A stretch of 64,000 nucleotides of DNA from assembly GCA_010093815.1 (NCBI GenBank), contig ML996570.1, one strand, 5' to 3'. Made by a program: the position numbers and the translations under genes. Origin of the DNA: Pseudovirgaria hyperparasitica (taxonomy: Eukaryota). A model generated the notes under the pieces. That model was given only the letters and a program-made list of their open reading frames with translations, had not been told where the DNA came from and ran no database searches. Positions 1 to 45,222 of this stretch are shown here, in pieces. The stretch's first letter is position 1. The number at the start of each line of letters is the position of its first letter.

Positions 1-468
1 AGACAAGCTACGCCACTCATGAATGTGCTGTGATTATACACGAGATCCCCGCATCCGTCCTTTAGGCCCTGAATGCGCACCTTACTCATTCGCTACACAA
101 GACTTCAATGTTGTAGTGTCATGTGCTGGAAACAAGACGCGAGAGCTCACCATGTTGCGCATCTTTCGCCTTTGGCTAGTCAGCGCAGCTAATAGTGGAA
201 GGCACGTTCGATACTTGCCGCTGGCGACCTGACAGAGGTGCGGAACATTGACCTACCTATGAGTTAGATGAGCGAATTTTTGAGTTATCCTTCCCGTGAT
301 AGCTGGCCTGTATAATATGTACGTTCATCATTACTGAAACGACAGAAAAAATATTATGAAGCACACGACTTAGGATGTATCTAACCCTACCGAGTTCGTG
401 TGTATTAGAGATCTCGTCGGTATTCTCCCACTAAGCAGACTGTCCTCTCTTATATGCCCGTGTGCTAT

Positions 469-18378: not shown

Positions 18379-18978
18379 TTTGTCTTTGGTGATGCTCTTT
18401 GTGATGATGATGTTGCAAGCTTCCAGCTTCACGGGCTGTGCAGGCGGAGGTGGTTATGCCGTTTCTGGGCTAGACTCGCCCTAAGCCGAGAACGTTTAGT
18501 GGCATGGAATGATCTATGGATTTGGATGACTTCACTAGAAAACCTTTATTTCTAAGCTATATTGGCCTGAGCGTTTGGAACAGAGACTTCAATTTCTTGA
18601 CTATTGAAGATCCGTCTGAGCTACGAGCCACAAAGAACAATTGACTGATGATTCATATAGCGAATTGCGAAGCCTTGGTGTAATAGGCGAAGTGACTCAC
18701 ACTGATTCTTCGGGGGCTCGTGCCACGGGTGGCGGTGTTTGTAAAGACTTCCGCCGAAACAGAACCTTGGAAGTCTACAACAACAACGTCGCCACAGCTC
18801 CTGCCATATCTCATCGTTCATATCTGGCTGTCGCTGAAACCCAGGAATTTCTATTACAACTTTATAGTCTACGTCATAGGATCATATCACTTCGTTTCGC
18901 AAAGATATACCAATATCAAGTGACGACTCATTTAATCGTGGAAGGGCCAACCCACGGGAGCTGCAATCTTTTGCTAAT

Positions 18979-21900
18979 ATGTCTACTACTGGCCCAGAAT
19001 CGCTACCGGCGGGCCCTGCGGACAGTACCCGAAGACGGGCGAGAAATCGTCAAAGGCCAAGTCGCACCATTCCAGATGCCCAGGATCAAGGAGAGGACAC
19101 AAACGTAGCGCGACAAGTTCAAAGTCGTGGGAGAGATGGCGTACGAGGACGGCCAGGCAGAGGCGCCCACACAACTTTGAGACCAATGAGCGTTCCACCC
19201 GTTCCGGAAAGCCAACATACAAGCCCGAATATCTCCAACAATGAAACGCGAACGCCGCGGCAGTCAGGTCCGCGTCGTCGCGGCGGTGGTCGTGGTGGTC
19301 GTGGTGGTCGAGTGGACACCCATATGGACGAAGGACGCAATTCACGAAGACAACGAGGCGAGCCAGCTCACAATGTGAATACTTCTCAGACCTTTCAAGG
19401 AAGGCGATTCGGTGGTCAATTGACAGAAGCGAATAGCAGTATTGAAGCGTCGGCCGACACAAGTCTATCGGCCAATGCAACAGCTTTCGTTCCTGGTCAA
19501 CCACATGAATCTCGTCCAATTCCTCCGGCTGCAGTCCCTCCACACAATCTTCCCCGTAAACGAAAAGCTTCGAAATCTACGGCGCCAGACATAGCTACCA
19601 GGATCCACGAGGACATCGAGAACCACCAGTACGAATGCGCTATATGCACCAATGAAATCCTTCCAAACTCGAAAGCTTGGTCATGTAGGACATGCTGGAC
19701 GGTCTTCCATCTGAGTTGCATCAAGAAATGGTCAAGTAGAGAAGGCTCAGCAGTCTCACAGCAGCCACCTGGTCAAAACGGCGAGCTACCTCCGCCTAGA
19801 CAATGGCGATGTCCTGGTTGCAACCTACCAAAGGACGATGCTCCGAAGGCATTTACTTGTTGGTGCGAAAAAGAAATTGACCCTAAACCTCTCGCTGGTC
19901 TTCCCCCTTTCTCTTGTGGGCAGACTTGCGCCCGGGATCATCTCATACCTAAGAAGTGCCCCCATCCATGCCCATTGAGTTGTCATGCGGGTCCTTGTCC
20001 ACCATGTACACATACCGGGCCCACTCAAGAGTGCTTCTGCGGTAAGCAATCCGCCACACGGCGATGTGTCGACACGAATTACGAGTCTGGATGGAGTTGT
20101 CAGCAACTGTGTGGGAAGTCTATGTCGTGTCGCGAGCATGTGTGCCCCCGCAAATGCCACGAAGGTCCTTGTGGTTCGTGTGAGATCAAAATTCCTGCGC
20201 GGTGCTATTGTGGTAGATCAGAAAAGGCGATACTGTGCATGAATCAGGGCCAGCCCAAGCCAAGCCAATCAGCAGAAGAAAATTGGGTTGGCACTTTTGA
20301 TTGCGCCAGCGAGTGCAAGCGTCTCCTTGATTGCGGTATCCATCGATGTACTAAAGGATGTCACCCCCAAGATGCAGATGCCTCCCACTGTCCTCGTTCA
20401 CCTGATAATGTTGATCATTGTCCATGTGGAAAGACAAAGCTCGCGGATCTCAGTACAGCACTTCGTCAAAACTGTGAAGATCCAATACCGAATTGCAATG
20501 AACCCTGCCATACAACGTTGGCATGCGGCCATACTTGTGAACAGACATGCCACGGTGGGGAATGCAGTCCTTGTATGAGACGTGTCTCGATCAAATGTCG
20601 TTGCGGCCGAGTCGAGGCAGCAACGGTGTGCCATCAAGGCTCGTATTCACAGCCCCAATGCAGACGGAAATGCAAAGCATTGCTCAACTGCAAACGTCAC
20701 GAATGCGGAGAACATTGCTGCCCAGGCGAACAGAAAGCAGCGGTACGGACGAAGAAGAAACTAAGACCCCTGAATACAGCGCCGCGGCCAATGGACAACG
20801 ACTTTGAAGCCGAACACATTTGTACACGCTCCTGTGGACGACCGCTTGGCTGTGGTCTTCACAATTGTCAGGAGCTATGCCACTCTGGACGATGTGGTAG
20901 TTGCCCTGAAGCAATTTTCCACGATGTTGCCTGTCATTGCGGTCGTACTGTTCTTCAGCCGCCTCTTCCTTGTGGTACCAAGGTTCCAGCCTGTCGTTTT
21001 GAATGTACGAGAGTGAAAAGCTGTGGACATCCGCAAGTTTCCCACAGCTGCCATACAAACGACGAGGCATGTCCCAAATGTCCGTTTCTAACAAACAAGA
21101 CTTGTTCTTGCGGCAGAAACGTTCTAAAAAATCAACCATGCTTTCTGCCTGAGGTGAGATGTACTGAAGAGTGCGGACGAAAACTGAAATGTGGATCCCA
21201 CAGTTGTCGCAAAATATGCCACAAACCTGGAGATTGCGAGGATTCAACATCCGGGTGCCAGCAGAAGTGTGGAAAGGAAAAGTCCTGTGGCCATCCTTGC
21301 TCAGAATTATGTCACTCTCCGTATGAGTGCAAAGAAGAGAAGCCATGCGACTCAAAGATTCTGATTACATGCCCTTGTATGCAGCTAAAAAAAGAGACCC
21401 GATGCAATGCGACAAAGACGAATGGGGGAAATAATAAGAAAGAATTGGATTGCAACGATGAGTGCGCTCGGTTAGAACGAAATCGCAAACTCGCTGCAGC
21501 TCTCAACATCGACCCTGAGACGCACTCTGACGATCATGTGCCATATTCCTCGGATACCCTCAACATGTATCTAGCCAATTCCATATGGGCTTATGCTCAA
21601 GAGAAAGAGTTCCGCATGTTTGCTGCAGATGCGGAGGCGAGGCGACTGCGGTTCAAGCCAATGCAAGCGCCACAGAGAGCTTTCATTCACTGTTTGGCTG
21701 AAGACTTTGGTCTTGATTCTGAAAGTATGGATCCGGAGCCGCACCGGCATGTTCTGATATTCAAAACGCCACGCTTCATCATGGCCCCTATGAAGACGCT
21801 GGCGGAGAGTGCGAGGATTAGACAACGTCAACGAAGCACCGTCAGTACTGCTGCAAAGATTATTGCCCAACCTGCTGCTCCCATTATCCGACAGAATGCT

Positions 21901-22527
21901 AGCAATACGGTTGATGAACCGTATAACGGCTTTGTCCTGACCAATGCTCGCTTTGCGCTAACAGCCGAGGAGCTACGATCTGCGCTCAAGACCGTCATGG
22001 ACCCGAAGTCTGGTGTAATCTTCGATATAACTTTTCTACCCAACGAGGATGTTGTACTAAAAGCAGCTTCTCGGACGTTGATAGAGCATGATTTAGAAGT
22101 TTACCTCAGGTCCGTTAAGCCCGGAGTCGCACGCACAGTTTCCAATCAGAGACTGGGCAGCATCGAGCTTTGCCGCCTGGATCCCTCGTCTAATATCACC
22201 CGACGCGAGTCAGACATAACAAGCAATGGTGGCTGGAGTCAAGTAGCAGCCAAGGCAAATTCTACGGGCCGATTTGTGCGACAGGTGCCAGTCATTGGAT
22301 CTGCCAGTTCCTTTACTGTTCTTAGCCTTTCGTCGAGAAATAAGAAGCTACCAGTATCCAAGAGAGAGGAGAGTATCGTAGATGACTGGGAGGCTGCGGA
22401 GTCGCTGGAGGAGGAGAAGGAGAAAGTGTCTGCTAGCGCTTGTAGTGAGGATGTTATTGAATCCTCCCAGATCCATGGGAATGACAACGCTGAGACGGCG
22501 AAAGCGACAGAGGAAGAAGTGAGGTGA
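18979..22527 (+). CDS. FAP1: NF-X1-type zinc finger protein with RING-like and R3H domains (FAP1 / shuttle craft-like)
   Basis: YECAIC..WSCRTCWTVFHLSCIKKW..WRCPGC, repeated CG.H.C...CH.G.C units, and R3H motif QRAFIHCLAEDFGL. Confidence 0.9.
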   Translation: MSTTGPESLPAGPADSTRRRARNRQRPSRTIPDAQDQGEDTNVARQVQSRGRDGVRGRPGRGAHTTLRPMSVPPVPESQHTSPNISNNETRTPRQSGPRRRGGGRGGRGGRVDTHMDEGRNSRRQRGEPAHNVNTSQTFQGRRFGGQLTEANSSIEASADTSLSANATAFVPGQPHESRPIPPAAVPPHNLPRKRKASKSTAPDIATRIHEDIENHQYECAICTNEILPNSKAWSCRTCWTVFHLSCIKKWSSREGSAVSQQPPGQNGELPPPRQWRCPGCNLPKDDAPKAFTCWCEKEIDPKPLAGLPPFSCGQTCARDHLIPKKCPHPCPLSCHAGPCPPCTHTGPTQECFCGKQSATRRCVDTNYESGWSCQQLCGKSMSCREHVCPRKCHEGPCGSCEIKIPARCYCGRSEKAILCMNQGQPKPSQSAEENWVGTFDCASECKRLLDCGIHRCTKGCHPQDADASHCPRSPDNVDHCPCGKTKLADLSTALRQNCEDPIPNCNEPCHTTLACGHTCEQTCHGGECSPCMRRVSIKCRCGRVEAATVCHQGSYSQPQCRRKCKALLNCKRHECGEHCCPGEQKAAVRTKKKLRPLNTAPRPMDNDFEAEHICTRSCGRPLGCGLHNCQELCHSGRCGSCPEAIFHDVACHCGRTVLQPPLPCGTKVPACRFECTRVKSCGHPQVSHSCHTNDEACPKCPFLTNKTCSCGRNVLKNQPCFLPEVRCTEECGRKLKCGSHSCRKICHKPGDCEDSTSGCQQKCGKEKSCGHPCSELCHSPYECKEEKPCDSKILITCPCMQLKKETRCNATKTNGGNNKKELDCNDECARLERNRKLAAALNIDPETHSDDHVPYSSDTLNMYLANSIWAYAQEKEFRMFAADAEARRLRFKPMQAPQRAFIHCLAEDFGLDSESMDPEPHRHVLIFKTPRFIMAPMKTLAESARIRQRQRSTVSTAAKIIAQPAAPIIRQNASNTVDEPYNGFVLTNARFALTAEELRSALKTVMDPKSGVIFDITFLPNEDVVLKAASRTLIEHDLEVYLRSVKPGVARTVSNQRLGSIELCRLDPSSNITRRESDITSNGGWSQVAAKANSTGRFVRQVPVIGSASSFTVLSLSSRNKKLPVSKREESIVDDWEAAESLEEEKEKVSASACSEDVIESSQIHGNDNAETAKATEEEVR

Positions 22528-23199
22528 AGAGATAGAAACCTATAGCGCAGACCTAGGCTGTAAAAGAAGCGGAGGCAGCTTCACTTCGTCCGAAGGACTG
22601 GCGTGTTGCCATTGCAGTGATGTCGATATTAGCGTATAAACATAGCCTTGAAGTCAAGGCAGTGGACCTGATAAAGGCTGTACATATTAGCTGGATCTCA
22701 GGGCGTTTTCTGATAGTATGTTCTCGAAGAAGAACGCAAATGTGGTTGATCTCAAGAAAACCGGCCATCATTGTACTGCATCCAGGACAGAAGTCACACA
22801 TGTTGACAGCCAATATCACCTGCCTTTTTATTGGCTGGTCCCGATAGTTCTAGAAGAAGCAGACTGTGGGTCAGGTTTTGGGCACGAGTCGGAGCTATTG
22901 GTCACAGCTACCTGGCACCCTTGCTGCAGTTAGCTTGACCCGCGTTTCGAAGATGCCACCTTGGACATATGGTTTTCGTCTGCCGTGTACTGTACCGTAG
23001 TATTTTCTCATGTCTTCACCGCAGTGATGCTTAATATGACATTGTCTATTATTCTCATCCAGTAGTACGTCGTGATCGAGATAATACCTCCCTACCATCA
23101 TTACAGCTCGTCGAACATCCGAGCCGCCGATCTGCGCCGCCCCTCAACCTTTCCCTCCCTCACTGAGGGTCTGTTACACTACCAGAACCACTCTGCAAC

Positions 23200-26100
23200 A
23201 TGGAGGCCGCTTACGCTCGTCCAACAAGGGAGACTTTGGAATTCTTCCAAGTCTCGGAGCAACATGGCTTGAACGAGGAGCGCGTAGAAGCCCTGCGCAA
23301 GAAATATGGGAAGAACGGTAACTGCGAGAAGAACTCGTTCCTCGGCAACATGAGAGCTAATAGTACATTTGCAGCCTTACCTGAAGATCCACCAACTCCC
23401 TTATGGGAGCTCATACTAGAGCAGTTCAAAGATCAACTCGTCATAATACTTCTTGGATCCGCCGCGGTTTCATTCGTCCTTGCGCTCTTCGAGGGTGGCG
23501 ACGATTGGACCGCTTTTGTGGACCCTGTTGTTGTAAGTTCCCTGTATACGTATGTTGAGTAGTCGAGAAGCTGACTATCCCACAGATCCTGACGATTCTC
23601 ATCCTCAACGCCGTCGTCGGCGTATCGCAGGAAAGCAGCGCCGAAAAAGCCATTGCTGCACTCCAAGAATACTCCGCGAATGAGGCGAAGGTCATAAGAA
23701 ATGGGGGTATCAAGCGTGTAAAGGCTGATGACCTGGTACCTGGTGATGTCATTACCGTGGCTATAGGAGATCGTATTCCCGCAGATTGCAGATTGCTCTC
23801 CATTCAGAGCAATAGCTTCAGTGTAGACCAGTCCATCTTGACAGGCGAAAGCGAGAGTGTTGGCAAGGATACTAGAATCGTCAAAGACAAGGATGCTGTG
23901 AAGCAGGACCAGGTCAACATGCTATTCTCTGGTACGACTGTGGTCAACGGTCATGCTAACGCTTTGGTCGTTCTCACCGGAAGTAACACTGCCATCGGCG
24001 ATATTCATGAAAGTATCACGTCACAAATTTCGCAGCCTACCCCTTTGAAAGAGAAGCTCAATGACTTTGGCGATGTGTTGGCCAAGGTCATTACTGGTAT
24101 CTGTATTCTCGTCTGGCTCATCAATATTCGTCATTTCAGTGATCCTTCGCACGGAAGCTTCACCAAGGGTGCCATTTACTACCTGAAAATTGCCGTGTCA
24201 CTTGGTGTTGCTGCTATTCCTGAAGGTCTCGCAGTTGTTATAACTACCTGTTTGGCCCTAGGTACTCGGAAGATGGCTGCCAGGAACGCCGTGGTCAGAA
24301 GTCTTCCATCCGTCGAAACACTTGGTAGTTGTAGCGTAATATGTTCCGACAAGACTGGGACTCTGACGACGAACCAAATGAGCGCCAACAAGATCGTCTT
24401 CATCAATGAGTCTGGTACAGATCTCGAAGAGGTTGACATCGAAGGTACTAGCTTCGCTCCCGAAGGACAAATATCTTTCAAAGGAAAGGGCCTCATAAAT
24501 GCTGCTGCCACATCAGCCACTATAACGCAGATCTGCGAGGTCACTGCTCTGTGCAATGAGGCCAAGCTCTCAATCGATCCTAAGACGGGCAATCACAGTG
24601 TCGTGGGTGAGCCTACTGAAGGCGCGCTTCGTGTATTGGTAGAGAAGGTTGGGACTCCTGTCGCAGATGTGAACGCGAAGCGATTGGCTGCATCTCTCTC
24701 TGACCGCCTACATTATTCCAGCGCATACTATGAATCACAGTATCCCAAACTCGCCACCTATGAGTTCTCTCGCGATAGAAAGAGCATGTCAGTCCTGGTC
24801 CAAGGTCGAAGTGGTCCAAAATTGCTTGTCAAGGGAGCCCCGGAATCCATTCTGGACCGATGCACCCACGTCCTCGTCGGAGCTCAAGGCAAGAAGGAAA
24901 AGCTCAATCCGAAGTTGGCCAACCTCATCAACCAAGAGATTGTTGAATATGGTAACCGAGGTCTCCGTGTTATTGCACTTGCCTCTGTCGAGGATATCGG
25001 GTCAAACCCATTGACGAAGACAGCTAAATCGACCAAGGAGTACGCACAACTCGAGACCAAGATGACACTTATTGGCCTGGTAGGTATGCTGGATCCTCCT
25101 CGACCAGAAGTTCGCCGTTCCATTGAGCTATGTCGCGAGGCAGGCATACGTGTAGTGGTTATCACGGGTGACAATCAGAATACAGCAGAGGCGATCTGTC
25201 GACAGATTGGTGTCTTTGGTGCAAACGAAAGTCTATCTGGTAAGAGCTACACTGGGCGACAATTCGATGCTTTGTCCGAATCCGAAAAGCTCGAAGCAGC
25301 AAAGCGAGCATCACTGTTCTCTCGGACCGAGCCGTCTCACAAGTCCAAGCTTGTAGATCTGCTTCAATCAGCCGGAGAAGTTGTGGCTATGACTGGTGAT
25401 GGCGTCAACGACGCGCCCGCGTTGAAGAAGGCCGATATTGGCGTTGCTATGGGCTCAGGTACTGACGTAGCCAAGCTGGCCGCCGATATGGTTCTAGTTG
25501 ACGACAACTTTGCAACTATCGAAGGTGCCATTGAAGAAGGGCGATCCATCTACAGTAACACACAGCAATTCATCCGGTACCTCATATCCTCCAACATCGG
25601 CGAAGTTGTTTCGATTTTCTTGACCGCCGCAGCGGGTATGCCTGAAGCTCTTATACCTGTACAACTCCTCTGGGTCAACTTAGTCACCGATGGTCTTCCA
25701 GCGACAGCCCTTTCCTTCAACCCCCCTGATCACGATGTCATGCGGAGACAGCCAAGAAAGCGCGACGAGCCACTTGTCGGTGGGTGGTTATTTTTCCGCT
25801 ACATGGTCATTGGTACCTACGTAGGTGCAGCAACCGTTTTCGGATACGCTTGGTGGTTCATGTTCTACTCAGAGGGTCCACAGATCAACTTCTCTCAGCT
25901 TGTAAGTTCCGAAGTATGCATAAGTGTAGGGGGCTCAGGTTCTAACTCGAACCAGTCTAATTTTCATCAATGCTCGACCAAATTCCCTGAGATTGGATGT
26001 GAGATGTTCGGAAATGATATGGCTAAGTCGGCATCAACGGTCTCTCTGTCAATGTAAGCTCGATCTTCAAATCGTTGTGCTCCCACACTAACATGCCAAC

Positions 26101-27626: not shown

Positions 27627-29403
27627 ATGACTTCGATTCGTTCTGGCGCGCCACTGGCCAGCACAGCTAACGTTACTGAGCCTCAAGTCGCTCTCCCCCA
27701 CCAAGAAGGTGATGACGCTGATACGCCCTCGAACATTAGATCGCACAAGGAAGACAGGTCCACCGCCTCGTGGTCCGAGAGAGATGCCGAGCTTGGGATT
27801 GATGGATTACAGGAGAAAAATGAGCTACAGGATTCCGCCGACGAACAGGATCCTAATGTAGTTTTCTGGGACGAGCCGATTGATCAGGACCCTAACAATC
27901 CAATCAATTGGAAAGAGGGATGGAAGTGGATGAATATTGCGGTGCTGGCGATATGTACACTTATCACGCACGAACTCCTGGCAACACGCCGAGGACATAA
28001 GCTAATATGATACAGACCTCTCGCCTCGAGTATGTTTGCTCCGGGTGTTCCTCAAATCATGCGGGAGTTCAACACCTCCGACCCAAAGCTCGCCACTTTT
28101 GTCGTTTCTGTCTATATTCTCGGTTTCGCTTTTGGGCCACTCCTAGTCGCGCCCCTGAGTGAAATGTATGGAAGGACAGTTTGCTACCATAGCTGCAATG
28201 TGTTGTTTGTCATATTCGCAATTGGCTGTGCTGTGTCGAACAGCTATGGCATGCTCGTGGCGTTCCGTTTCCTTATGGGTTGCGCCGGATCTGCACCACT
28301 GACTATCGGTGGAGGTACTATCGCAGACATGATGCCTCCCGAACGCCGTGGGTCAGCTATGGCTATCTGGGCCTTGGGGCCCTTGCTTGGACCCGTTATT
28401 GGACCTGTCGCCGGTGGGTTTCTGGTTGAAGGTGCAGGGTGGAGATGGGTATTCTGGCTGCTAGCAATTGTCGTAAGTCTGGTACGAGTGCCTACTGTGG
28501 AATATACTTACTATCTCGCCAGGGCGGTGTCTTTACAGTGCTTGCATTTCTCTTGCTCCGTGAATCCTATGCTCCTGTCTTGATCGGACGCAAGGTAGCT
28601 CGCCTTCGGAAAGAGACCGGAAATATGAATCTACGCAGTAAGCTTGACAACGGACTGACTTCCAAAGAACTGCTCAAGCGTGCTCTTGTGCGCCCAACCA
28701 AGATGCTCTTCCTCTCACCCATCGTGTTCCTCCTTTCGCTCTACATGGCCGTTGCCTACGCCATCCTCTACCTCCTCTTCACCACATTCACATTCGTATT
28801 TGAGCGGAGCTACGGCTTCAGTCCCGGCAACGTCGGCTTAACCTATATCCCCATTGGTATCGGCATGATTATCGGCTTAGCAGTTCTAGGAACACTCAGC
28901 GATCGTCATATCAAAGCGCTAATAGCCCATGGCGTGACACTTCAACCGGAGCACCGGCTACCTTATCTCTTGACTATCCCAGGGGGTTTTTGCATCCCCC
29001 TTGGTATGTTCATATATGGCTGGACGGCGCAATATCAGGTCCATTGGGCAGTACCGTTGCTTGGCACTATTTTCGTGGGCATTGGACTGATCAGTTGCAT
29101 GGTATACTCTTTTCCTCCTGAATGATCTTGCCAATCTACTAACATTCAGACAAGATGTCTATTAACACATACATGATTGATGCGTTCACGCTTCACGCTG
29201 CCTCCGCCATGGCTGCCAATACCGTGCTGCGATCTCTAGCCGGTGCGCTACTGCCGTTGGGTGGCCTGCAAATGTACAATGCTCTAGGATTGGGTTGGGG
29301 AAATAGTTTGATGGGTTTCATTGCGCTTGCCCTCGTACCAGTGCCGGCGGTATTCAAGATCTACGGGCCGTGGTTGAGAAATAGGTTCTGGGTCGAGTTT
29401 TAG
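27627..29403 (+). CDS. MFS drug:H+ antiporter (DHA1 family); introns 27968-28015 (GC-AG), 28473-28522, 29102-29154
   Basis: [48 protein letters not shown] and PEHRL motifs. Confidence 0.92.
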
Positions 29404-30117
29404 AGGGCCAGAGGATCAGTGTAAACAAGTGACACTTGCATTACGTTGCATTGCAGGCGTTGGGGCATACCGAGCGTGTCGAGAAATCCACTGTAGACTT
29501 TATGTAATCATGATTGATGGGTGAAATACCGTTTTTGAGCGACTGAGTCACTGTGGTAAAGCTGCAGTTTGTACTGCACGGCCTCGTAGGTCCTTTGTCG
29601 TGTTTGCATGCCTGTACAGACGATGCCATCCCTGCCCCTGAACCATCTTATGTCAAGAGACTGGGGCCATGTGCAATGTGATGTACTTCGTTTGATTAGT
29701 ATGGTGTACGATGTGGGCGGCAAACCTGGCAATTCTATGACAAACATGCAAATTGCCAGCCTTCTCTTCTCTAACTCATCAACATCATTTCCATCCCATC
29801 ACATATTATATAAGACATGTAGGTGGGTTCTAGACAGCTTACACACCAAGCCTGACGACACCATCCAGGAGAGGTGTATGGTGTATGGCAGTAGCTTTGC
29901 CGGAATCAAAGCCCTGGCCGTGTTCGCACTCCCTAAACAGCAGAAATTTTATCTTTTCCCTCTGCCACTAGCCAACGGGATTGGAGGGAGGCCTGACGGC
30001 TGTGCACTGATCGTGTAGCGCCGTAGACCATAGCGTAGCTTGGCCCGAAGCAGCAGTGTGTATGTGTATAGTGTGAGGGGAACTGACTGTCGTCGCTGTC
30101 ACTCTTGTAGTCGCTCC

Positions 30118-31210
30118 TCAGAGGTACCGACCGAGCCATTCGAGACCCTGATGATAACCTACAGATCAATGCCAAATCAATCAGATCAGTCCTCTGGTCC
30201 GCACGGGTAAGAGGGTATAGGGTGTTTCCTTCCTCCTACCTTGTCCCCTCAAAACAGAGCACATAAACAGCCCAACCGGCCTATCCCTCCCTCCTCTGCC
30301 CCCCTCCGCCCCACTAGCACCACCACCCCGATCAAGCCCCAACTCGGCCCGAAGCTGTTCCTCGCTCACCGCGTCAACGGCATCGATCTTATTCCCTAGC
30401 ACGAGGAAGGGTACCGTGGTGGTGCTGGCCAGGCACTCCAAGGACAGGGCCGAGTCGAGCGCGGCCTTGGCCTGGCGGAAGCGTTCGTGGTCCTGTGCGT
30501 CGACGAGGAAGATGACGGCGTTGATGGGGTGGATGTGGGTGGCGGTGCGCCAGGGTTGGGGCGTGTGTTTGTACATTAGGCCGCCGAAGTCGTAGGGGGT
30601 GATGGGTGTGGAGCTGATGGTGAGTTTTTGGGGGGTTTTTGCTGCTGTGAGGGTGTGTTGTGAGTTGGTGAGTTGGTGAGTTGGTGAGTTGGTGAGTTGG
30701 TGAGTTGGTGAGTTGATGTGTCTTGCGTGGATGCTTCGTGTGCGTTTTCCGGAGGGGGATGTATATGTTGTATATTTCAAATCGGCGGACTCACAGGATT
30801 GGGCATCTGGGGATGGCGAAGTTAGTTAGCGTGCAGCGGGTATCTGAATCGGAAGCAGCAATTCATGCAGTCTGTCTGGCATTGAGGGGGAAAGGGGACA
30901 TGCTTACTATGTGGCTTTGCGGCCATCTGCTCTGTCCGGAGGACGTGGAGAAGGGTCGTCTTGCCGGAGTTGTCGAGTCCGAGAAAGAGGACTTTGATGT
31001 CCTTCTCTACGAGGCCTAGCCAGGAGAGGCCATTGAGGACTATTTGGAGGGGACGGTACTTAGTATTTATATCTGGACATGCTGGTGCTATGGTTGTAGT
31101 TGTTGTTTTCTGGGATTGAGTCATGACTTACACCTAAGGTAGACTAGTTAGAAGAAAGGTTCTAGGGAAAGGGTTTGAGTGGGGTCTTCGTACCATTCTA
31201 GGAACCACAT
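30118..31210 (-). CDS. Divergent Sar1-family small GTPase paralogue; exons 31210-31194, 31133-31132, 31039-30908, 30806-30795, ~30644-30240, 30158-30118
   Basis: Spliced product MWFLEWFLNGLSWLGL..FLGLDNSGKTTLLH..YDFGGL..IFLVDAQDHERF..LGNKID..FMCSVLRGQGYHQGLEWLGRYL* is collinear with Sar1. All splice sites are GT-AG and the frame is intact. Confidence 0.85.
30660..30715. repeat. Tandem octamer (GGTGAGTT)n, about 7 copies, in intron 4 of the Sar1 paralogue
   Basis: Directly visible. Confidence 0.95.
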
Positions 31211-34200
31211 GGGTGCATGTCTGGGGTCTCGACGTGGGTAGGGGAGATTATGGCTTAGTTGTTGCTAATAGGCTGGATGTACTTATTCTAGAATTTGCTC
31301 GGGTTTCTTTTTTTGTTCTACAAGTCAGGGCTCCTATGACGTATGTGGCTTCATACCCGCTATGCTAGTTGATCCATCAAAACTTCTCCATAAACAAATG
31401 TTCCTTGTTCTTGAATGCGATGATACTCCGATATCCCTATTTGATTGCGCAGGCTACGTAGAAATGAAGCGCGCGGTATCCGAGCGGTATACCTCTGCCG
31501 TATCGTGAGGCCACTGTCCGGCTTGGAAAAATATGTAAACACAATAGGGGTAGTGTGTTCACTGACTCCAAAGGCATTACATCACCTAGTACAATATCTA
31601 CTCAAGCGACTCCCTGGAAGACGACATGTTCAAGTTTCTGCTCGCTAGACTTGCATAGTCGTGCGATAGTGAAGCCGATAATATCACGACATGTCTCTAT
31701 TTTACCCCGTCCTAAATGCCTCTTTTCCATTTTACAAACTCATCGTACGGCATAACAGTCACGATTCAAATCTACAGACCTCACTCACCGTGCCTAGAAG
31801 AGAAGAACAGGACGTTGATGTCCGCCACAAAAATATCCGCTAACCACCCGGCATAAAACCCTCGATAGCAACGATGACAATCGCCACTACCCCATGCCGC
31901 TGCTCATCATCACCATTCAATAAACACACCAAACCAACCACACATAGGAAGGCCAAATATACTTCCAAGCACAACCACCACCACCACCACCCTTCGGCTG
32001 CAATGGTAGTGCTAGCAAGGCAATAGTTGTGTTGAGCGAGGGCTCACATACTGAATCCATGCGTCTAGCTCCGGGAGACTGTTGTGTGTAGACGTATTGC
32101 TTCTGGAACTGGGAGGGAGGATAGGGATGGGAGGCGTGCTATATATATATTAGTGTAAGTAAGTAAATCAACTGCCGGGTAACACCGCCCCTGTCACACG
32201 CATTTGTCATGCATTCACTATCCACAAAACATGCATCTGTCTGCTGGATCAGTCAGTATCATTGTGCGACTTACCCGGCAGTGGTGCCTCTCCTTACATA
32301 TATATCTATCCTCGCACAGAGTATACGGCTACTCTACTCGCATACCTACAACAAGGCATTATGGTTCCGTCTTCGACGGATGGGACTTGTGACGACGGTA
32401 GACAGAACATTGGTCCGAAAGCCCCATGTGTGGCGTGCGAAGCGGTGGAAATGTTGGTGATGATCATTGGTATTGGGGGTGGATGGTGGGTAGTAGCTGG
32501 GCGCGGGTGGTATTTGGTGGGGAGTATACGATTGTAAGAGTGAGGGCGGAGTTGTACTGTGGGGTTGGGGAGTGTGAATTGTGATTCTAAATGCTGTGAG
32601 TATGAATGGAGAATATGATAGTATGTATGCATTATGTCCAGCTATGATAATGACGACCATCACCACGGTAACAAACTATCAAAACCCTGATGATGAATAG
32701 CGTATAGTGATGCTAATCATCACCATCATCACGACAGCATAAAGACACATGTCCCAGAACCCTGCGATCAGAAAAAAGCAATCATTCCCACACATAGTTG
32801 TCGTGTAGTGTAAACAAGTGGGAGACACTTAGACAGCATAGTCTTCCATACCGATGTCCCTTGCACATGTTTGCTGACGAGAGGAAGAAGTTTTGGGGCT
32901 TGAGGGGGTGGTATATATATGCACATCTGTAGCTGTTCTGCGTGTGAATAGACTAGACGAATGCCGGGTACGCATCGTATCACACGTCATGCTCGCACGT
33001 CACGTTCGCCGGGTTGGATCGTGGATGAGACGTTGTAGCTGATGACAGAGACAGACATATCTTCACTTTTCAATGTGTGATAACAATATACATCATGTCT
33101 GAACAGCGATAACGTGCACCACTAATGTATAACAACGATGAGCAACACTACTCCCTTGCTCCCTCCCTCCCTCCTCCACATCCCAAACACCAAACAAAGC
33201 ACCCATTCGCAGCACATGCACATACTCCTGGCCCCAAGCATAGATGTGAAACGTTCCTAGGGGCTTATAATTGCATCCCGTTAGCGCTTAGACGGGCGGT
33301 TGATGTATCAGAGTCTTATTGCTGGTGAGTAGGATAACAAAGCAAGATAGAGTAGAGGAGGGGGATATATATAGACAGATACGTGTATATAAGCACGCGT
33401 GAAGTTCCAGCTAGATGAATAGCCGGGTACGTACATACGTACATACGTCCCGCCTCGTGCTTCCACGCCTCATGCTATGGAGGGTAGGAGAAGGAGAGAG
33501 GCAGGGAGGGACAAGCTACGCACAAGACTTATAATAACCCAGACCTCGTGAATAATCTAATCTCAACGAGGGCACAGTGCTTATATTTCTCGTTCCACGG
33601 CCACTGCCTGCGGATCATGTGGATATGGTGGTGGTGGTAATAACCATCTTCACCATTTAATAACATTACTATAGGAGGAAAGTCCACTCAGCACGAGCGA
33701 GACATATGTACCGACGTCGATGCCTTGAGGTAGTGTGTGGGAAAGGGGGTTGTATTGGGAATCTAGTGATGGCCGGGGGATAGCATGGTAGTATGATATG
33801 GAAACTGCGGAGATGGAAGAAAAGGAAGATGGGATAGGCGTATGACGAGTGTTTAATTGAGAGGGAGAGGATATGCTCGGAATGCCGGGTAGGTGTGCTT
33901 TTCACACAGTCATATATTCAAAGTGACGCACATTTCTGTGAAAGGGGTTCCACTACACTCGACACAAGTATATATAAATAGATGACTATAAGTCCCGTGG
34001 ACAACTCAATCACTCACAGCACCCAGAACATAGAAATCTATATTTCCGACATCAATAAGGATATCCGCGATGGATGGCGTGGACCAGGCTTGCCGGTTTC
34101 TTGTGTGCTTTGTCGGGCGCCTTCCCGTCGCGGTGATCTTTCGACCTTGACAACAACATGATTATGCGGCTTGTCGCGCTGCTGCATTGCTACGAGTGTG

Positions 34201-38908: not shown

Positions 38909-41637
38909 ATGGAGAATGGCGGGGTGGATTTGAGCAATAGGCCACCTGACTCCTTCGCCCGCGAATCTTTATGCTTTTCCGGTCCTGAACCTGGTCTTGT
39001 CATCCACAATGGTGACCCGAAGCATCATGAGCAGCAGCAGGAGCTGTTCGCTCACGACGAAAGCCGCGCCATCGAGAATCTGATCAAGTTAAAGGCCCGA
39101 TTACGAAACTTGGCCGGTTCGGACTTCTGGGAGCAGATGACGGAAGGACTGGCCAAGATGATGGGTGCCCAGTATGCCTTTGTTTCCAAGCGTATCGTGA
39201 CCGACGACGAGAACGCTGCTGTTGAGATGCCTCCCATTGGCATGCCTGGATCTTGCCTGATGGGTCTCGCAATCTACATTTCAGACGGTCTGGCAATGGA
39301 GAATCGCATGACAAACTTCAAATACCACGCCTACTCATGCCCCTGTGCATACATGCGTCACGACAAGGTCTTTGTCATTGCAAAACACCTCGAGGAATTC
39401 GTTGTCGGCAACCCAAATGTGCTCCCTCTTCCCGCAGAATCCTATATTGGTATCCCACTCTTCGCCCATGGAAAATGTATAGGCCATTTTGGGGTCATGT
39501 GGGGCCCCAAGGAGTCTCACAAGAGAGGCCTCGGTTGGGCTCATATGGAATTGCTGTTGCATTCTGTCGAAGACATGATTCTGAACCGGATGCTGGAGAA
39601 AAGAGACTTTAGCGAAAATGTCGTCGATGCCATGAAATGCGGCCATTCCAAGGTAATACCTCATGATGCAATCGCTACAGCCACTCAATCACTCAAACCG
39701 TACGCTCGAAGCCTATCGCATGAATTGAGAACACCGATGCAAGGCGTGGTGGGAATGCTTGATGTCATGTACGCCACCGTACAAGATGCCGTTCAAGAAC
39801 ACCGGGACCTCCGTGTGCGCAAGGTCTTTACTGACCTGAAGAAGAACATTGAAGACATTCAAGGTCAGAAACATATTCTATCTAATATTAGGGCCCTCAC
39901 TGATACCTCCCAGATTCATCACGCCGTGCAGTGGAAGCTGCAGACAATGTAGTGCACGCCTATGACATGAATATGGGCGTCCCTGAGACTCCCGCCACTC
40001 CATTCGACGACGACGAGCCACGATCAGCCGTTTTGAATCTGCCAGAGAAGAGGCCAGATATAGTTGTTGCCGGTAACAATATGCATCTCAATCTCAAATC
40101 AAACAAACGAAAGCGGGAACCGACGTCCTGGGACTTTGGACCTGCTCCAAAAGTTCGTGTCCCAGTCTCTCCTCAAAGCTCACGTGGTCGAAACAGCTTC
40201 GACACCCAATATGCAGCCAGTCTGGCCGAGGATGTCAGTGCATCCAGACAATCGCATCACGACGACGCCGAAGCTTATACCAGTCCGAAGAGTGAGCCAA
40301 GGTCGCCTGTCTTCGCCACGGAACGCAACATCGTTCCTGGACTCCGACACACCAATCTTCCCGATGTGCTTCAATACATCATCAATGACTCTCTCAAAAT
40401 AGGTGGCAGACCTGAATCTGCCATCGCAAAAGAAACGGAGAATGGTGAGATCATCGAGGTTCACACGAGGTCACCAGCTGGCGAAGACAAAGTCAAGATC
40501 ATCGAATGGTCGGTAGCCAACAATGTCCCAGATTCCATGTTGATTGATGAGCGAGAGCTGGGCAAGATGATATCTTGTGTTGTTCTCAATGCCATCAAGT
40601 TCACCGAAGAGGGCAAAATCACCATCACGGCCCGTCTCAGTCATCGCAATCGATACATCATCATCAACGTAAAGGACAGTGGCCCAGGCATACCGACCGC
40701 TTTCCACCCAAACCTCTTCAAGGCTTTCTCACGAGAGGACGACTCTCTAACACGACAGAGCGAGGGTCTCGGTCTCGGTCTTCTGGTGGCCAAAGGTCTC
40801 GCCCGTAAACTTGGCGGTGACATCCGCTGTGTACACACAGAGACATACGGGCCTGACAAGGGATCCGACTTCGAGATGCGCGTGCCCTTGACGCCGAGTG
40901 ACGTGTGCAGTAGGCCATGCTCACCGTCAGGCTCTATGAGCCCTGCCACCCGGTCTCGCACTCGCACTCCAGGAGATTCAGATGAGCGTCTGCAGACACC
41001 TGCCTTACCACCTACTACGACCAAAGTCCTCACGGACTTGATACACGAAAGCCGCAACGACTCACACCATCCGAACCCTTCTCAGACCTCCACATCATCT
41101 CCGTCTCTACTCCGATCTCCCCGAATTCCTGCTTCTCCATCCCGCCGGCCAAGCGCACCTCAGATGTCCCGAAGACTCTCCACCAAAAGCACCTCGGGAG
41201 GTAGTCTCGCCAAGCGCCACCCGTTGAACTTTCTCGTTGCCGAAGACAACAAAATAAATCGCAGCATTCTTGTCAGCATGCTTAAAAAGCTTGGCTACTC
41301 GTCAATTAAAGAAGCATACGACGGTGCTGACGCTGTTCGAAAAATGACCGAAGATACTCAAAATGGCCGTCATGTAGATGTCATCCTGATGGATCTTTGG
41401 ATGCCGTTCATGGATGGATATGAAGCCACCGAACGCATCCTCGAGATGGGCAATGGTCCGAAAGACCCCAAACCTCCCACGATTCTCGCTGTTACAGCCG
41501 ACGTTACGGACGGAGCTCTGGAACGCGCTGCTAGGGCGGGCATGAAAGGCTTCATGACGAAGCCCTACAAACTTACTGATCTTGAAAGACTTATCGTTGA
41601 GTACTGCGCACAGCAAACCAACACCGATACCACATGA
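38909..41637 (+). CDS. Hybrid two-component histidine kinase (GAF-like sensor, HisKA, HATPase, receiver); intron 39864-39913
   Basis: H-box SHELRTPMQG, N-box NAIKFT, G1 DSGPGI, G2 GLGLGL; receiver AEDNKIN..LMDLWMPFMDG..KPY; GAF-like YIGIPL. Start codon is the first in-frame ATG. Confidence 0.92.
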
Positions 41638-42079
41638 ACTGACACGCTTATGCATATGTCCTCGCAGACAAGGTGTGCTCGGGGTTTTTATTTCTTCTAT
41701 TTCTGTGTTGTGTGATGAGCACACAAATTACAAATCATATTCATGCATAGCGAGAGGATATGGGCATACCACTAATGGCGTTTACTTGTTCAAAGCACCT
41801 GCCAGGGGCAGAGTCGCATGTCATGTATAGTGTATTTGAACTATGCTAGAGCGCCACCGACATGCGCAAAGACTTAGATAATCAGATGTTAAATTCACGA
41901 TATCAGGGACTTTCAAAAGTGATACGTGCGGTGTGCCTCAGGCAGCAGCTATAGCCGTAGCATTGGCTTGGCGTCCGTGTAATCATCCCCACATTAATGT
42001 AGCTCTCTACGAGTTGCATGCAACCTTTCATCTCAACTTCATATCCTCGCGACAGATGACTGTATCATAGGAACTAACC

Positions 42080-44607
42080 ATGGCAGTAAAAGCATCCCTT
42101 CCTCTCCCACCACCTCCTCCTCCATCATCTGGCTCTCTCGCACCACCACCACCCCCTCTAGATTCATCAGCACCGCCGCCTCCACCAGAGGACATTCCAC
42201 CACCTCCGCCACCAAGCGATGAACCGCTCGGGCCTGCTTTAGGTGTTCGCGGCAGTGTCGGTAGTGTGACTGGATCAATTCCAAGCAGGAAAGTAGCTAA
42301 GCAGCCACCCAGTATCGAGGATTTTCTGAAGAAGAAGAGGGAAGCGGACGCGCTAGCTGCAAAGGTATGCTGCCATCTGAGTACTATGCAAGGTAGTGCT
42401 TCCAGTAAACGTTTAAATGACCTAACTGTCATGTAGCCAAGGTTTATACCCCGAGCTCAACGTGAAAAATACGCGAAGGCCGAAGAACAGCGTCAAGCTG
42501 AAGAGCGAGCGCGAAGGGAAGAGGCAACGCGTTTGGAAAGAGCCAAGTTCATGGCAGAGGCTGGTATGAGTGAAACAGCGAGCAGTACACGTGGGACCAA
42601 TGGAAGCGCGCGACCTGCCATACCTACCGGACCAAGATCACAAAGACAAGAGGCTCCTAGAGGACCTAGCGCGATGCGCAACAGGCCTGGAGAAAAGACA
42701 AACATGCCACCGCCTGGCAAGCAGAGTGCTACTGTCGCGGCACCCACGGATAACAAGAAACGAGCAATAAACCCCGAAGAAGCGGAGAAGGAGTTGATCA
42801 GACAGCGATACATGGGTGTGGACAACAATGTTTCGACTTTCTCGGCGAAAAAGAAGCGAAAGCGGACCACAGAGAAGAAATTCAACTTTGAGTGGAACCC
42901 AGAAGAAGATACCAGCCAGGATTACAACCCTCTGTACCAAGACCGGACGGTGGCATCTTTCTACGGACGAGGTCGATTAGGTGGTTATGCAGATAACGAG
43001 GCCGGTGCTCGTGCGTACACAGATGCTATCAAAAAGCTCAGCAAGAGCGATGAGACAGCACGAATAAATGCAATCATGGACATGGAAAGACGTCAAAGGG
43101 ATGCAGGTGGACGCGGTGTATTGGAGAAGCACTGGAGTGATAAGGAGTTGTCTCAGATGCGCGAACGTGACTGGCGCATCTTCAAGGAAGACTTCAGCAT
43201 CAGCACCAAAGGCGGAACATTACCAAATCCGATGCGGTCATGGGACGAGTCCGATCTGCCCGAAGATGTCCTCGCTATCATCAGACGGGTCGGTTATACC
43301 GATCCTTCGCCAGTACAAAGGGCTTCTATCCCTATTGCTCTGCTCAACCGCGACCTGATCGGAGTTGCTGTCACTGGTTCCGGTAAAACTGCTGCCTTCC
43401 TGCTACCTTTACTAGTCTATATCAAAGATCTGCCTACCTTCAACGACTTCAACCGCAATGACGGGCCGTACGCAGTCATTCTCGCTCCAACTCGTGAGTT
43501 GGCGCAACAGATCGAATCAGAAGCAACAAAATTTGCGTCGCCACTCGGCTTCAAGGCTGTCAGTATCGTTGGTGGTCACTCTATTGAAGAGCAAGCATAC
43601 AACATGCGCGAAGGAGCACATATTCTCATTGCTACGCCTGGTCGTCTCCTAGACTGCATCGAGCGTCGTGTCCTAGTCCTCAGCCAATGTTGCTACGTTA
43701 TTATGGATGAGGCTGATCGCATGGTCGACCAAGGTTTCGAAGAGCCGCTGAACAAGATCCTTAACGCTCTCCCAGTCTCCAACGAGAAGCCCGACAACGA
43801 TGATGCTGAGAATCCGGTGGTAATGAGCCGTCGTCTAGGAGGCAAAGACCGCTACCGCCAGACAATGATGTTTACAGCCACTATGCCAGCAGCTGTCGAG
43901 CGCATCGCAAAGAAATACCTGCGCCGCCCCGCCACAGTAACCATTGGTAACGCCGGCGAAGCAGTCGACACAGTCGAGCAACGTGTCGAGATGATCTCAG
44001 GCGAAGAGAAGCGGAAGAAGCGCCTCGAGGAAATCCTACGCTCGAACCAGTACGCGCCACCAATCATTGTCTTTGTCAACATCAAGCGTAACTGTGACAC
44101 GATCGCGCGTGACATCAAGCACTGGGGATACTCGGCTGTCACACTGCATGGTAACAAGACACAAGAACAGCGTGAGGCGTCTCTGTCTCAGCTGCGTAAT
44201 GGAACTGCAGACATCCTCGTCGCAACCGATCTTGCGGGTCGTGGTATCGACGTGCCGGACGTTAGTCTGGTGGTTAACTTTAACATGACTGGGAGCATCG
44301 AGGCTTATACACATCGTATTGGACGTACGGGTCGTGCAGGGAAGACGGGTACAGCGATTACTTTCTTGGGACACGAGGATGAGGACGTCATGTACGTGCA
44401 CCCCTCATTCTATCTTGCTGTCAGTGGCAGTGCTAACCAAGCCATAGGTACGATCTCAAGTCCATGCTGCAGAAGTCGGACAAGAGCCGCGTTCCGGAGG
44501 AGCTACGCAAGCATCCTGCTGCGCAGCAGAAGAAGACACACGGCCAGAGAAAGGCCGAGAAGACGGAGGAGAATGGTGGCGGACAGCAGCGTGGCAGCGG
44601 GTGGTGA
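42080..44607 (+). CDS. PRP28: Pre-mRNA splicing DEAD-box helicase Prp28; introns 42365-42436, 44392-44447
   Basis: KFNFEW..DTS, HWSDKEL..MRERDWRIFKEDF, TGSGKT, PTRELA, DEAD and HRIGRTGRAG; terminal exon MYDLK..VPEELRKHPAA. Confidence 0.96.
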
Positions 44608-45222
44608 GAGGTGAGAGGTGGAGTGTTCATACTGACTATCGTATCGTCGCAATCAGGATATTACTGCTGTGTGTAGCAAAGCGGACGGCTTTCTTGCAAG
44701 CATCATTTGGGTATTCATGGCACTTTTTATCATATCATGTATCAACAACACTCGTCATCGACGGAGAAACCCTGCTGTCGAGTACGACAGGCAAGATAAT
44801 ACATGACTCATTATGATCCTACCTGAAAAAACATTTCAATCTGCATTCCAAGTAACGCGAGTCAAAGACTCTTTCTTCACTACTCTAATCAATAGTATAG
44901 TCGGAAAGGAAGATAGCAGGCTTAATTATAGTAAATGCGCATTCAATCGTATATGTTCTTGGGTAATTAGTGGCAGCATGCAAGCCCCCTGGAAATTCGC
45001 CCCTTTTTTAGAGGGTGGTCCACCAAAGTTGCAGAATAACATGCGTAATGTGTGCTGTGCTGTGCTGTGATGTGCTGTGCTGTGCTGTGCTGTGAGAGAG
45101 GGAGAGAGAGTAGCCCGCGTAGCTAAGCAATATAATGTCCTTAGTGAGTAAACGTATATATGTTTGTATTTGAGCAACTTACACCCATCTCTCAGCTACA
45201 CACCTACCTGCCTAAGCAATGC

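Follow-up and report, generated by a model that had tools for sequence, protein, structure and literature searches.

An intact Sar1-type gene with leucine at the catalytic histidine position and replaced switch regions in Pseudovirgaria hyperparasitica

We identified an intact, intron-bearing gene of the Sar1 type at positions 30118-31210, minus strand, of a 64,000-nucleotide (nt) stretch of Pseudovirgaria hyperparasitica DNA (GenBank assembly GCA_010093815.1, contig ML996570.1; the whole stretch is hereafter called the window). In the accessible part of PMC3317363, this fungus is described as a mycoparasite on rust sori, belonging to the Dothideomycetes, order Acrospermales. The gene starts with an ATG at 31210-31208 and ends with a TGA at 30120-30118, and splicing by the signals in the DNA yields a coding sequence (CDS) of 609 nt, or 202 codons. 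The start, stop and strand proposed in a first-pass annotation, which was made from the letters alone, all match the sequence, and every motif that it named lies within this single spliced frame:

aa (amino acids) 1-16, minus strand: N-terminal hydrophobic helix, MWFLEWFLNGLSWLGL
aa 27-35, window 30954-30980, minus strand: P-loop, GLDNSGKTT
aa 73-77, window 30577-30591, minus strand: DFGGL, with the Leu77 codon CTA at 30579-30577
aa 139-142, window 30382-30393, minus strand: NKID
aa 181-185, window 30253-30267, minus strand: FMCSV
aa 190-202, minus strand: C-terminal helix, GYHQGLEWLGRYL

The exon-intron structure was worked out from the DNA together with the assembled contigs of four sequencing runs. 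X1 and X2 are DNA runs and possibly the source of the assembly. X3 and X4 are two runs of one study whose kind is not recorded; their contigs are identical to the window, and contigs of this sort show presence only. In X3 and X4, contigs leave out stretches of intron size bounded by GT..AG-type ends; this happens in the Sar1-like gene as well as in a neighboring plus-strand gene of the MFS family, and no contig of X1 or X2 shows such joints. Because these joints are present in X3 and X4 and missing from the DNA runs, we read X3 and X4 as derived from cDNA. The resulting model has six exons:

31194..31210, minus strand: exon 1 (17 nt), with ATG and MWFLEW, which begins the Sar1 N-terminal helix; the X3 contig 31192-31265 joins to 31039
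31134..31193, minus strand: putative intron 1 (60 nt), GTACGA...CTAAC...TTAG, which would explain the RNA joint by canonical sites
31132..31133, minus strand: 2-nt exon GT (proposed), flanked by an AG acceptor and a GTAAGT donor; the two letters finish the Trp6 codon and open the Phe7 codon
31040..31131, minus strand: intron 2 (92 nt), GTAAGT...TACTAAG...ATAG; X3 record 12 is unspliced over 31010-31110
30908..31039, minus strand: exon 3 (132 nt), with the rest of the N-terminal helix, the P-loop, helix alpha1 and the start of switch I; Pfam Arf match (E 1.8e-08)
30807..30907, minus strand: intron 3 (101 nt), GTAAGC...GCTAACTAAC...CAG; removed in X3 and X4
30795..30806, minus strand: exon 4, a 12-nt micro-exon, ATGCCCAATCCT; part of the rewritten switch I, encoding N51-A-Q-S and the first base of S55
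30645..30794, minus strand: intron 4 (150 nt), GTGAGT...CAG; removed in X3 and X4; its frame is open and it is kept in the public model P0123
30240..30644, minus strand: exon 5 (405 nt), with the interswitch hairpin, DFGGL, switch II, NKID, a Gly/Arg loop and FMCSV; Pfam Arf match (E 1.4e-16)
30159..30239, minus strand: intron 5 (81 nt), GTAGGA...CTGAT...TAG; placed by its DNA signals
30118..30158, minus strand: exon 6 (41 nt), with the C-terminal helix and the TGA stop

Within exon 5, the rewritten switch II occupies 30520-30579, and the Gly/Arg-rich loop, which stands at the position of the Sar1 omega loop, occupies 30277-30333. In the six-exon model, each of the five introns runs from GT to AG and contains a motif resembling a branch point. 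Over exon 3, contigs of both X3 and X4 span 30908-31039 and end exactly at 31039, and those over exon 5 cover 30340/30342-30644. The parts at 30268-30339, which encodes part of the Gly/Arg loop, and at 31111-31191 are without contig cover in either run. The joint 30908|30644 occurs in both X3 and X4, and the 12 letters that lie between its two sides are the reverse complement of exon 30795-30806. Introns 3 and 4 are thus removed, with the frame-keeping micro-exon included. Furthermore, the removal of intron 5 would restore GYHQGLEWLGRYL, which aligns with the canonical GYGEGIRWLSQYV and is identical to it at 7 of the 13 residues of the C-terminal helix.

The start of the gene requires more care. 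One contig of X3 carries the joint 31192|31039, which reads ...GGT|TCC, a sequence equally produced by joining exon 1 (to 31194), GT (31133-31132) and exon 3. Since a 2-nt exon at 31133-31132 splits what would otherwise be an AC..AG joint into two canonical introns, every intron then becomes GT..AG. We therefore propose this 2-nt exon, with the X3 contig fitting the other GT pair equally well. When the first joint is taken as the RNA shows it, no gap is needed to align the N-terminus with the canonical MWIINWF...LFLGLD. Note that exons as short as 2 nt are easily overlooked by gene callers. A model of five exons with an AC..AG first intron, which gives the same 609-nt, 202-codon product and fits the contig as well, was less preferred than two canonical introns. 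Splicing from GT 31193 straight to the acceptor at 31040 was rejected, as it shifts the frame into a stop and the contig shows otherwise. Intron 2 also contains an alternative acceptor AG at 31083-31082, which is the choice of the public model. At 31124 it has an ATG in frame; a start there (MTQSQKTTTTT...) could give a minor isoform, which would be without the conserved MWFLEWF. The six in-frame exons of the first-pass annotation are thus borne out provided that the 2-nt exon is accepted. RNA sequencing, which it had proposed as a check, has its counterpart in X3 and X4, by which (their RNA origin being read from the joints) the gene is transcribed and spliced in frame across at least three joints.

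The open frame of the CDS exceeds what is expected by chance. When the 609 nt were shuffled as mononucleotides, the frame stayed open in 41 of 20000 shuffles, and the two alternative reading frames of the spliced CDS are interrupted by 7 and 6 stops. The GC content at third codon positions is 0.72 against 0.45 at second positions, and the exons are richer in GC than the introns (0.60 versus 0.48). Across six long open reading frames of the same window, third-position GC is 0.45-0.57, compared with the 0.72 of the Sar1-like gene. This high value may have been inherited from a highly expressed parent gene with its codon bias.

The public gene model of this locus, P0123, is a 272-aa protein that matches at 100%, is named "Arf-domain-containing protein" by NCBI for P. 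hyperparasitica and forms a singleton cluster. It retains introns 4 and 5 and takes the acceptor at 31082, with the result that it carries about 65 spurious residues and is missing the C-terminal helix. P0123 is wrong, and the 202-aa six-exon model should take its place.

The protein belongs to the Arf/Sar small GTPase family and, within it, is closer to Sar1 than to Arf or Arl proteins. Pfam Arf (PF00025) is matched by exon 5 at 60.9 bits and by exon 3 at 34.5 bits, against a cut-off of 22.3. In a phmmer search of the PDB, the 16 best distinct sequences were all SAR1 (E from 2e-22 to 8e-18), the next being ARL8B at 8e-07. Three protein searches were made, one running HMMER exhaustively over 1.84 billion representatives and two by word index, and every named match in them was Sar1. 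The N-terminal extension with its amphipathic helix is present, as MWFLEWFLNGLSWLGL aligns gaplessly to MWIINWFYDVLASLGL, and there is no Gly2 myristoylation site. G1, G3, G4 and G5 are present as GLDNSGKTT, DFGG, NKID and FMCSV. The N-terminal STAR motif and alpha1' helix of Sar1 mediate membrane and Sec12/Sec23 steps, according to the accessible text of PMC2150902.

We compared the protein with 136 canonical Sar1 sequences, chosen by length and by the motifs GLDN[AS]GKTT and D[LIV]GGH. The consensus derived from them is pan-eukaryotic, and columns at least 95% conserved among the 136 were called invariant. The two measures were distributed along the protein as follows:

aa 1-42: identical to the consensus at 25/42 positions; invariant columns kept, 16/16
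aa 43-96: identical to the consensus at 9/54 positions; invariant columns kept, 5/14
aa 97-202: identical to the consensus at 56/106 positions; invariant columns kept, 25/31

Invariant columns were thus kept at 41/47 outside aa 43-96 versus 5/14 inside (Fisher p = 3e-4). Outside the switches, where overall identity to the consensus is 81/148, 41/47 invariant columns were kept compared with 40/101 other columns (Fisher p = 4e-8), a second figure that the pan-eukaryotic consensus itself lowers. The lost block comprises switch I, the interswitch hairpin and switch II, and a Gly/Arg-rich stretch stands at the Sar1 omega loop. Neither the conserved switch I (…PT.HPTSEEL) nor the conserved switch II (H.QARR.W.DY) is found in the protein. 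The first-pass annotation had described both switch regions as rewritten and had pointed to a natural His-to-Leu change at the catalytic site, and both descriptions hold: HMMER places DFGGL under D75-L-G-G-H79 of human SAR1B (8e0d, E 2e-22), with Leu77 at the catalytic His79. The accessible part of PMC2150902 describes His79 as the counterpart of Ras Gln61 and H79G as GTPase-defective, and gives residues 48-59 as switch I and 78-94 as switch II of mammalian Sar1.

Five insertions relative to canonical Sar1 account for the difference between 202 and 189 aa (13 residues), and all of them are in frame (+3, +2, +2, +3 and +3 aa). By our own estimate, this would happen with a probability of about (1/3)^5 if insertions and deletions were neutral. 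In the MAFFT alignment, the two conserved threonines of switch I have Ser54 and Thr58 as their counterparts. A threonine of switch I takes part in Mg2+ binding in Sar1, and a Mg2+-binding hydroxyl may survive here. A frameshift scramble of the central region was also considered and rejected, as no remnants of canonical Sar1 were detected in the other frames (tblastn, E up to 10).

A structure was predicted with AlphaFold2 from the flawed public model P0123, using a 40-row alignment of mostly canonical Sar1; its switch I part is uninformative. The predicted local distance difference test scores were 85-95 for the core, 80-87 for the hairpin, 63 for switch II and 54-61 for the loop, and the top Foldseek matches of the model were Sar1 structures. 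We take the model to suggest compatibility with the fold and nothing beyond that. A GTPase fold that is kept, as this alignment-biased prediction indicates, combined with Leu in place of the hydrolysis His, would place the protein among the pseudoGTPases.

The three protein searches returned no orthologue of the divergent copy. A candidate, P0124 (129 bits), was rejected because it consists of two head-to-tail copies of a fragment from an ordinary Sar1. No second Sar1-like copy was detected in the window (tblastn, E up to 10), and a full-text literature search returned no paper on the 30118-31210 locus or on a natural His-to-Leu Sar1. In a maximum-likelihood tree of 35 rows, the Sar1-like protein lies inside the Pezizomycotina Sar1 clade, a clade of 19 rows with support of 100/97. 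Canonical fungal Sar1 are mutually 78-90% identical, and the Sar1-like protein is at most 50% identical to any canonical Sar1 in the tree set. In an approximately unbiased (AU) test, a tree in which 28 canonical fungal Sar1 form a clade without the Sar1-like protein has a p-AU of 0.369 and a log-likelihood difference of 4.7. An origin older than a duplication of fungal sar1 is disfavored, though not rejected by the AU test.

The intron positions bear on the same question. Three mis-modeled Pezizomycotina Sar1 (P0024, P0011 and P0014) read through introns after MWI.NW and after ...MRQG, and these places, as judged from the protein models and not from DNA, coincide with where the Sar1-like gene has its first and last introns. 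The match suggests, indirectly, a duplication of sar1 at the DNA level. The Sar1-like protein also has residues like those of Pezizomycotina Sar1, such as the MW... start and DAVSEE. Terminal-lineage duplications occur often within the Arf family, as stated in the accessible part of PMC8358228.

Several features surround the gene or lie within its introns. Intron 4 contains a tandem repeat at 30652-30715, with an 8-nt unit of GGTGAGTT (plus strand) in 8.1 copies (Tandem Repeats Finder score, 114). On the coding strand this repeat carries a recurring CTCAC motif resembling a branch point. The DNA assemblies X1 and X2 break their contigs at the repeat, and short contigs of high depth cover it. 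Convergent to the Sar1-like gene on the plus strand is an MFS transporter gene at 28011-30267 (Pfam MFS_1, 1.6e-33), from which a 53-nt intron is spliced at 29100/29154. An X4 contig follows the MFS gene continuously to 30267, through the stop, exon 6 and intron 5 of the Sar1-like gene, and the two transcripts may overlap tail to tail. Farther away, the genes at 18880-26054 and 39904-44611 are of ordinary housekeeping kinds and encode an NF-X1/R3H zinc-finger protein, a P-type cation ATPase, a hybrid histidine kinase and a DDX23-like DEAD-box helicase. Nothing among these neighbors points to surroundings rich in transposons or to a gene cluster.

Taking these results together, we favor, with moderate confidence, a lineage-specific duplicate of sar1 that still works as a coding gene and no longer works as a molecular switch, being hydrolysis-dead and uncoupled from both Sec12 and Sec23. 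The protein would attach to membranes by its retained N-terminal hydrophobic helix and bind GTP or GDP in its retained pocket, which comprises the P-loop, the Asp and Gly of DxxG, NKID and CSV. With Leu at the catalytic His, it would not hydrolyze GTP at a useful rate. Unrelated sequence rich in Pro, Thr and His stands in place of switch I, switch II and the omega loop. The GTPase-activating protein Sec23 and the exchange factor Sec12 would fail to recognize it, because both read the switches. The product would then be a nucleotide-bound pseudo-GTPase on membranes that might modulate exit from the endoplasmic reticulum (ER) or have gained a new partner, and that would not cycle as Sar1 does. 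We assume that a canonical sar1 elsewhere in the genome does the essential job.

The first-pass annotation had arrived at a similar idea, that of a neofunctionalized, constitutively GTP-bound protein or pseudo-GTPase, perhaps uncoupled from Sec12 and Sec23. The kept helix, P-loop, NKxD and CSV, together with the lost switches, would fit a protein that binds nucleotide without contacting Sec12 or Sec23, whereas its nucleotide state, hydrolysis and partner binding are matters that we, too, infer. Because the catalytic His and the conserved switches, two features that define Sar1 proper at the sequence level, are both missing, we advise against annotating the gene as a functional Sar1 orthologue.

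The strongest competitor is decay of the duplicate. On this view the locus would be a pseudogene, either young or dying slowly, whose transcription and splicing continue, with motifs left over from its highly conserved parent and an open frame aided by GC-rich composition. We regard decay as a serious possibility, though a less probable one than the reading that we favor. It would suit a singleton for which the protein searches returned no orthologue, and whose nearest proteins besides P0123 are canonical Sar1 at no more than 48% identity (exon 5) or 34-39% (over the length of P0123). The end branch (2.08 changes per column; median, 0.11) is about 19 times the median length and is also expected under relaxed constraint. 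The catalytic His is lost, and 9 of the 14 invariant columns in aa 43-96 have changed. The replaced segments are of low complexity and, as the introns are, CA-rich at the DNA level; they look like products of slippage, with the 8-mer microsatellite in the adjoining intron, and they put prolines into the presumptive strand beta3 (PITPYDFGG). Moreover, 6683 of 20000 shuffles leave the central 54 codons open, which makes an open frame there uninformative. Other points that weigh against a working gene concern the transcripts. Intron 5 is unspliced in the sole contigs that cover it (X3 record 9 and X4 record 14), and its retention would swap the C-terminal helix for GRRKETPYTLLPVRTRGLI; unspliced forms of two further introns occur as well (X4 record 16, across the acceptor of exon 5, and X3 record 12). 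The first joint is known from one contig of one run, and X3 and X4 carry no record of being RNA, their RNA origin having been read from the joints. The structure prediction is biased to the canonical fold by its alignment and has uncertain scores for switch II (63) and the loop (54-61). Yet decay accounts poorly for 202 codons without a stop or frameshift, which so few shuffles reproduce (41/20000) and which contrast with the 6-7 stops of the other frames. Nor does it explain why all five insertions (5/5) are in frame. Outside the switches, invariant columns were spared at 41/47 even though identity to the consensus there has fallen to 81/148, and neutral decay should not spare them. Splice signals are all intact, including those of the two tiny exons (2 and 12 nt) that are required for the frame.

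The remaining two explanations would change the origin or the role of the gene. An ancient Sar1-like paralogue, of SarB type or older, might have survived in the lineage of P. hyperparasitica only, and the AU test does not reject a position outside fungal Sar1 (p-AU 0.369, log-likelihood difference 4.7). SarB itself is patchily distributed and hard to place, according to the accessible part of PMC8358228. We nonetheless consider an ancient origin very improbable, since the maximum-likelihood tree nests the protein in Pezizomycotina Sar1 (100/97), its Walker B residue is Tyr and not the Trp that the same partial source gives for SarB, its first and last intron positions match the read-through in P0024, P0011 and P0014 (as inferred from protein models), and it shares the Pezizomycotina-like MW... 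start and DAVSEE. Still harder to credit is that the gene is the sole Sar1 of P. hyperparasitica and drives COPII budding by an unusual catalysis. It is true that no canonical Sar1 of this species was found by name among 166 member rows in 16 clusters, one of them the singleton of P0123, and the best 120 of 2724 relatives of a Dothideomycete Sar1, but with at most 15 names seen per cluster such a miss carries little weight. Across fungi, Sar1 is conserved at 78-90% identity, yet 9 of 14 invariant switch columns have changed in the Sar1-like protein, and changes of the H79G type are GTPase-defective in the accessible text of PMC2150902.

Comparison with known systems helps to delimit the duplicate that we favor. 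Canonical fungal Sar1/SarA (the COPII GTPase, PF00025) shares with it the fold family, the best sequence and structure matches, an N-terminal helix without a Gly2 site, the P-loop, DxxG, NKID and CSV, the C-terminal helix, the length apart from 13 inserted residues, and the placement in the maximum-likelihood tree. Unlike canonical Sar1, the Sar1-like protein has Leu77, a rewritten switch I, interswitch, switch II and omega loop, five in-frame insertions and a branch of 2.08. The engineered mutants H79G (mammalian) and H77L (yeast) carry their substitution at the same aligned position. They keep wild-type switches and bind Sec23/24, however, whereas the switches of the Sar1-like protein are replaced. 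A dominant block of COPII by trapping of Sec23/24 is therefore not expected, because the switches themselves have been replaced.

Among pseudoGTPases of the Arf family, the microsporidian ArlEM is described in the accessible part of PMC13393502 as having an Arf scaffold, very fast lineage-specific evolution and mutated GTPase motifs, and in these respects it is similar. It differs in that most of its canonical motifs are mutated and that it is conserved across a clade; the Sar1-like protein has intact G1, G4 and G5 and is known from one species only. Our protein shares with SarB, the ancient Sar1-like paralogue of protists (Vargova et al. 2021), the status of an additional Sar1-like protein that presumably accompanies a genuine Sar1. 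The accessible part of PMC8358228 gives Trp in Walker B as a mark of SarB, where the Sar1-like protein has Tyr72 in YDFGG, and SarB was described from protists while our protein is nested in Pezizomycotina in the maximum-likelihood tree. Closer in taxonomic terms are P0095 (Hypoxylon sp. NC0597) and P0080 (Hypomontagnella submonticulosa) of the Xylariales, which are also extra Sar1-derived copies on long branches (1.26 and 0.61). Neither forms a supported grouping with the Sar1-like protein, and the rewritten segments differ: P0095 has DVGGQ and an altered P-loop, GLPGAGKY, and P0080 has kept DLGGH and is missing the omega loop. Duplication of Sar1 may be a recurrent event in Pezizomycotina.

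Few eukaryotic GTPases are as conserved as Sar1, and work on its catalytic His has to our knowledge relied until now on engineered mutants. We consider the significance of the present gene moderate, because it appears confined to one species and its function is a proposed one. A bolder version of our interpretation, which we put forward tentatively and think rather unlikely, is a natural "locked" Sar1. A membrane-inserting, nucleotide-bound pseudo-GTPase derived from Sar1 and unresponsive to Sec12 and Sec23 would in that case have been co-opted to regulate or scaffold ER exit sites, or some other membrane, constitutively, possibly in connection with the secretory demands on a mycoparasite. If true, this would be a natural experiment on what a membrane helix and a nucleotide pocket can do without a GTPase cycle. 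The Sar1-like copy would add a Sar1-derived case to the known pseudo-GTPases, and it could reveal which activities of Sar1, such as membrane insertion, curvature or scaffolding, are usable without the Sec12/Sec23 cycle.

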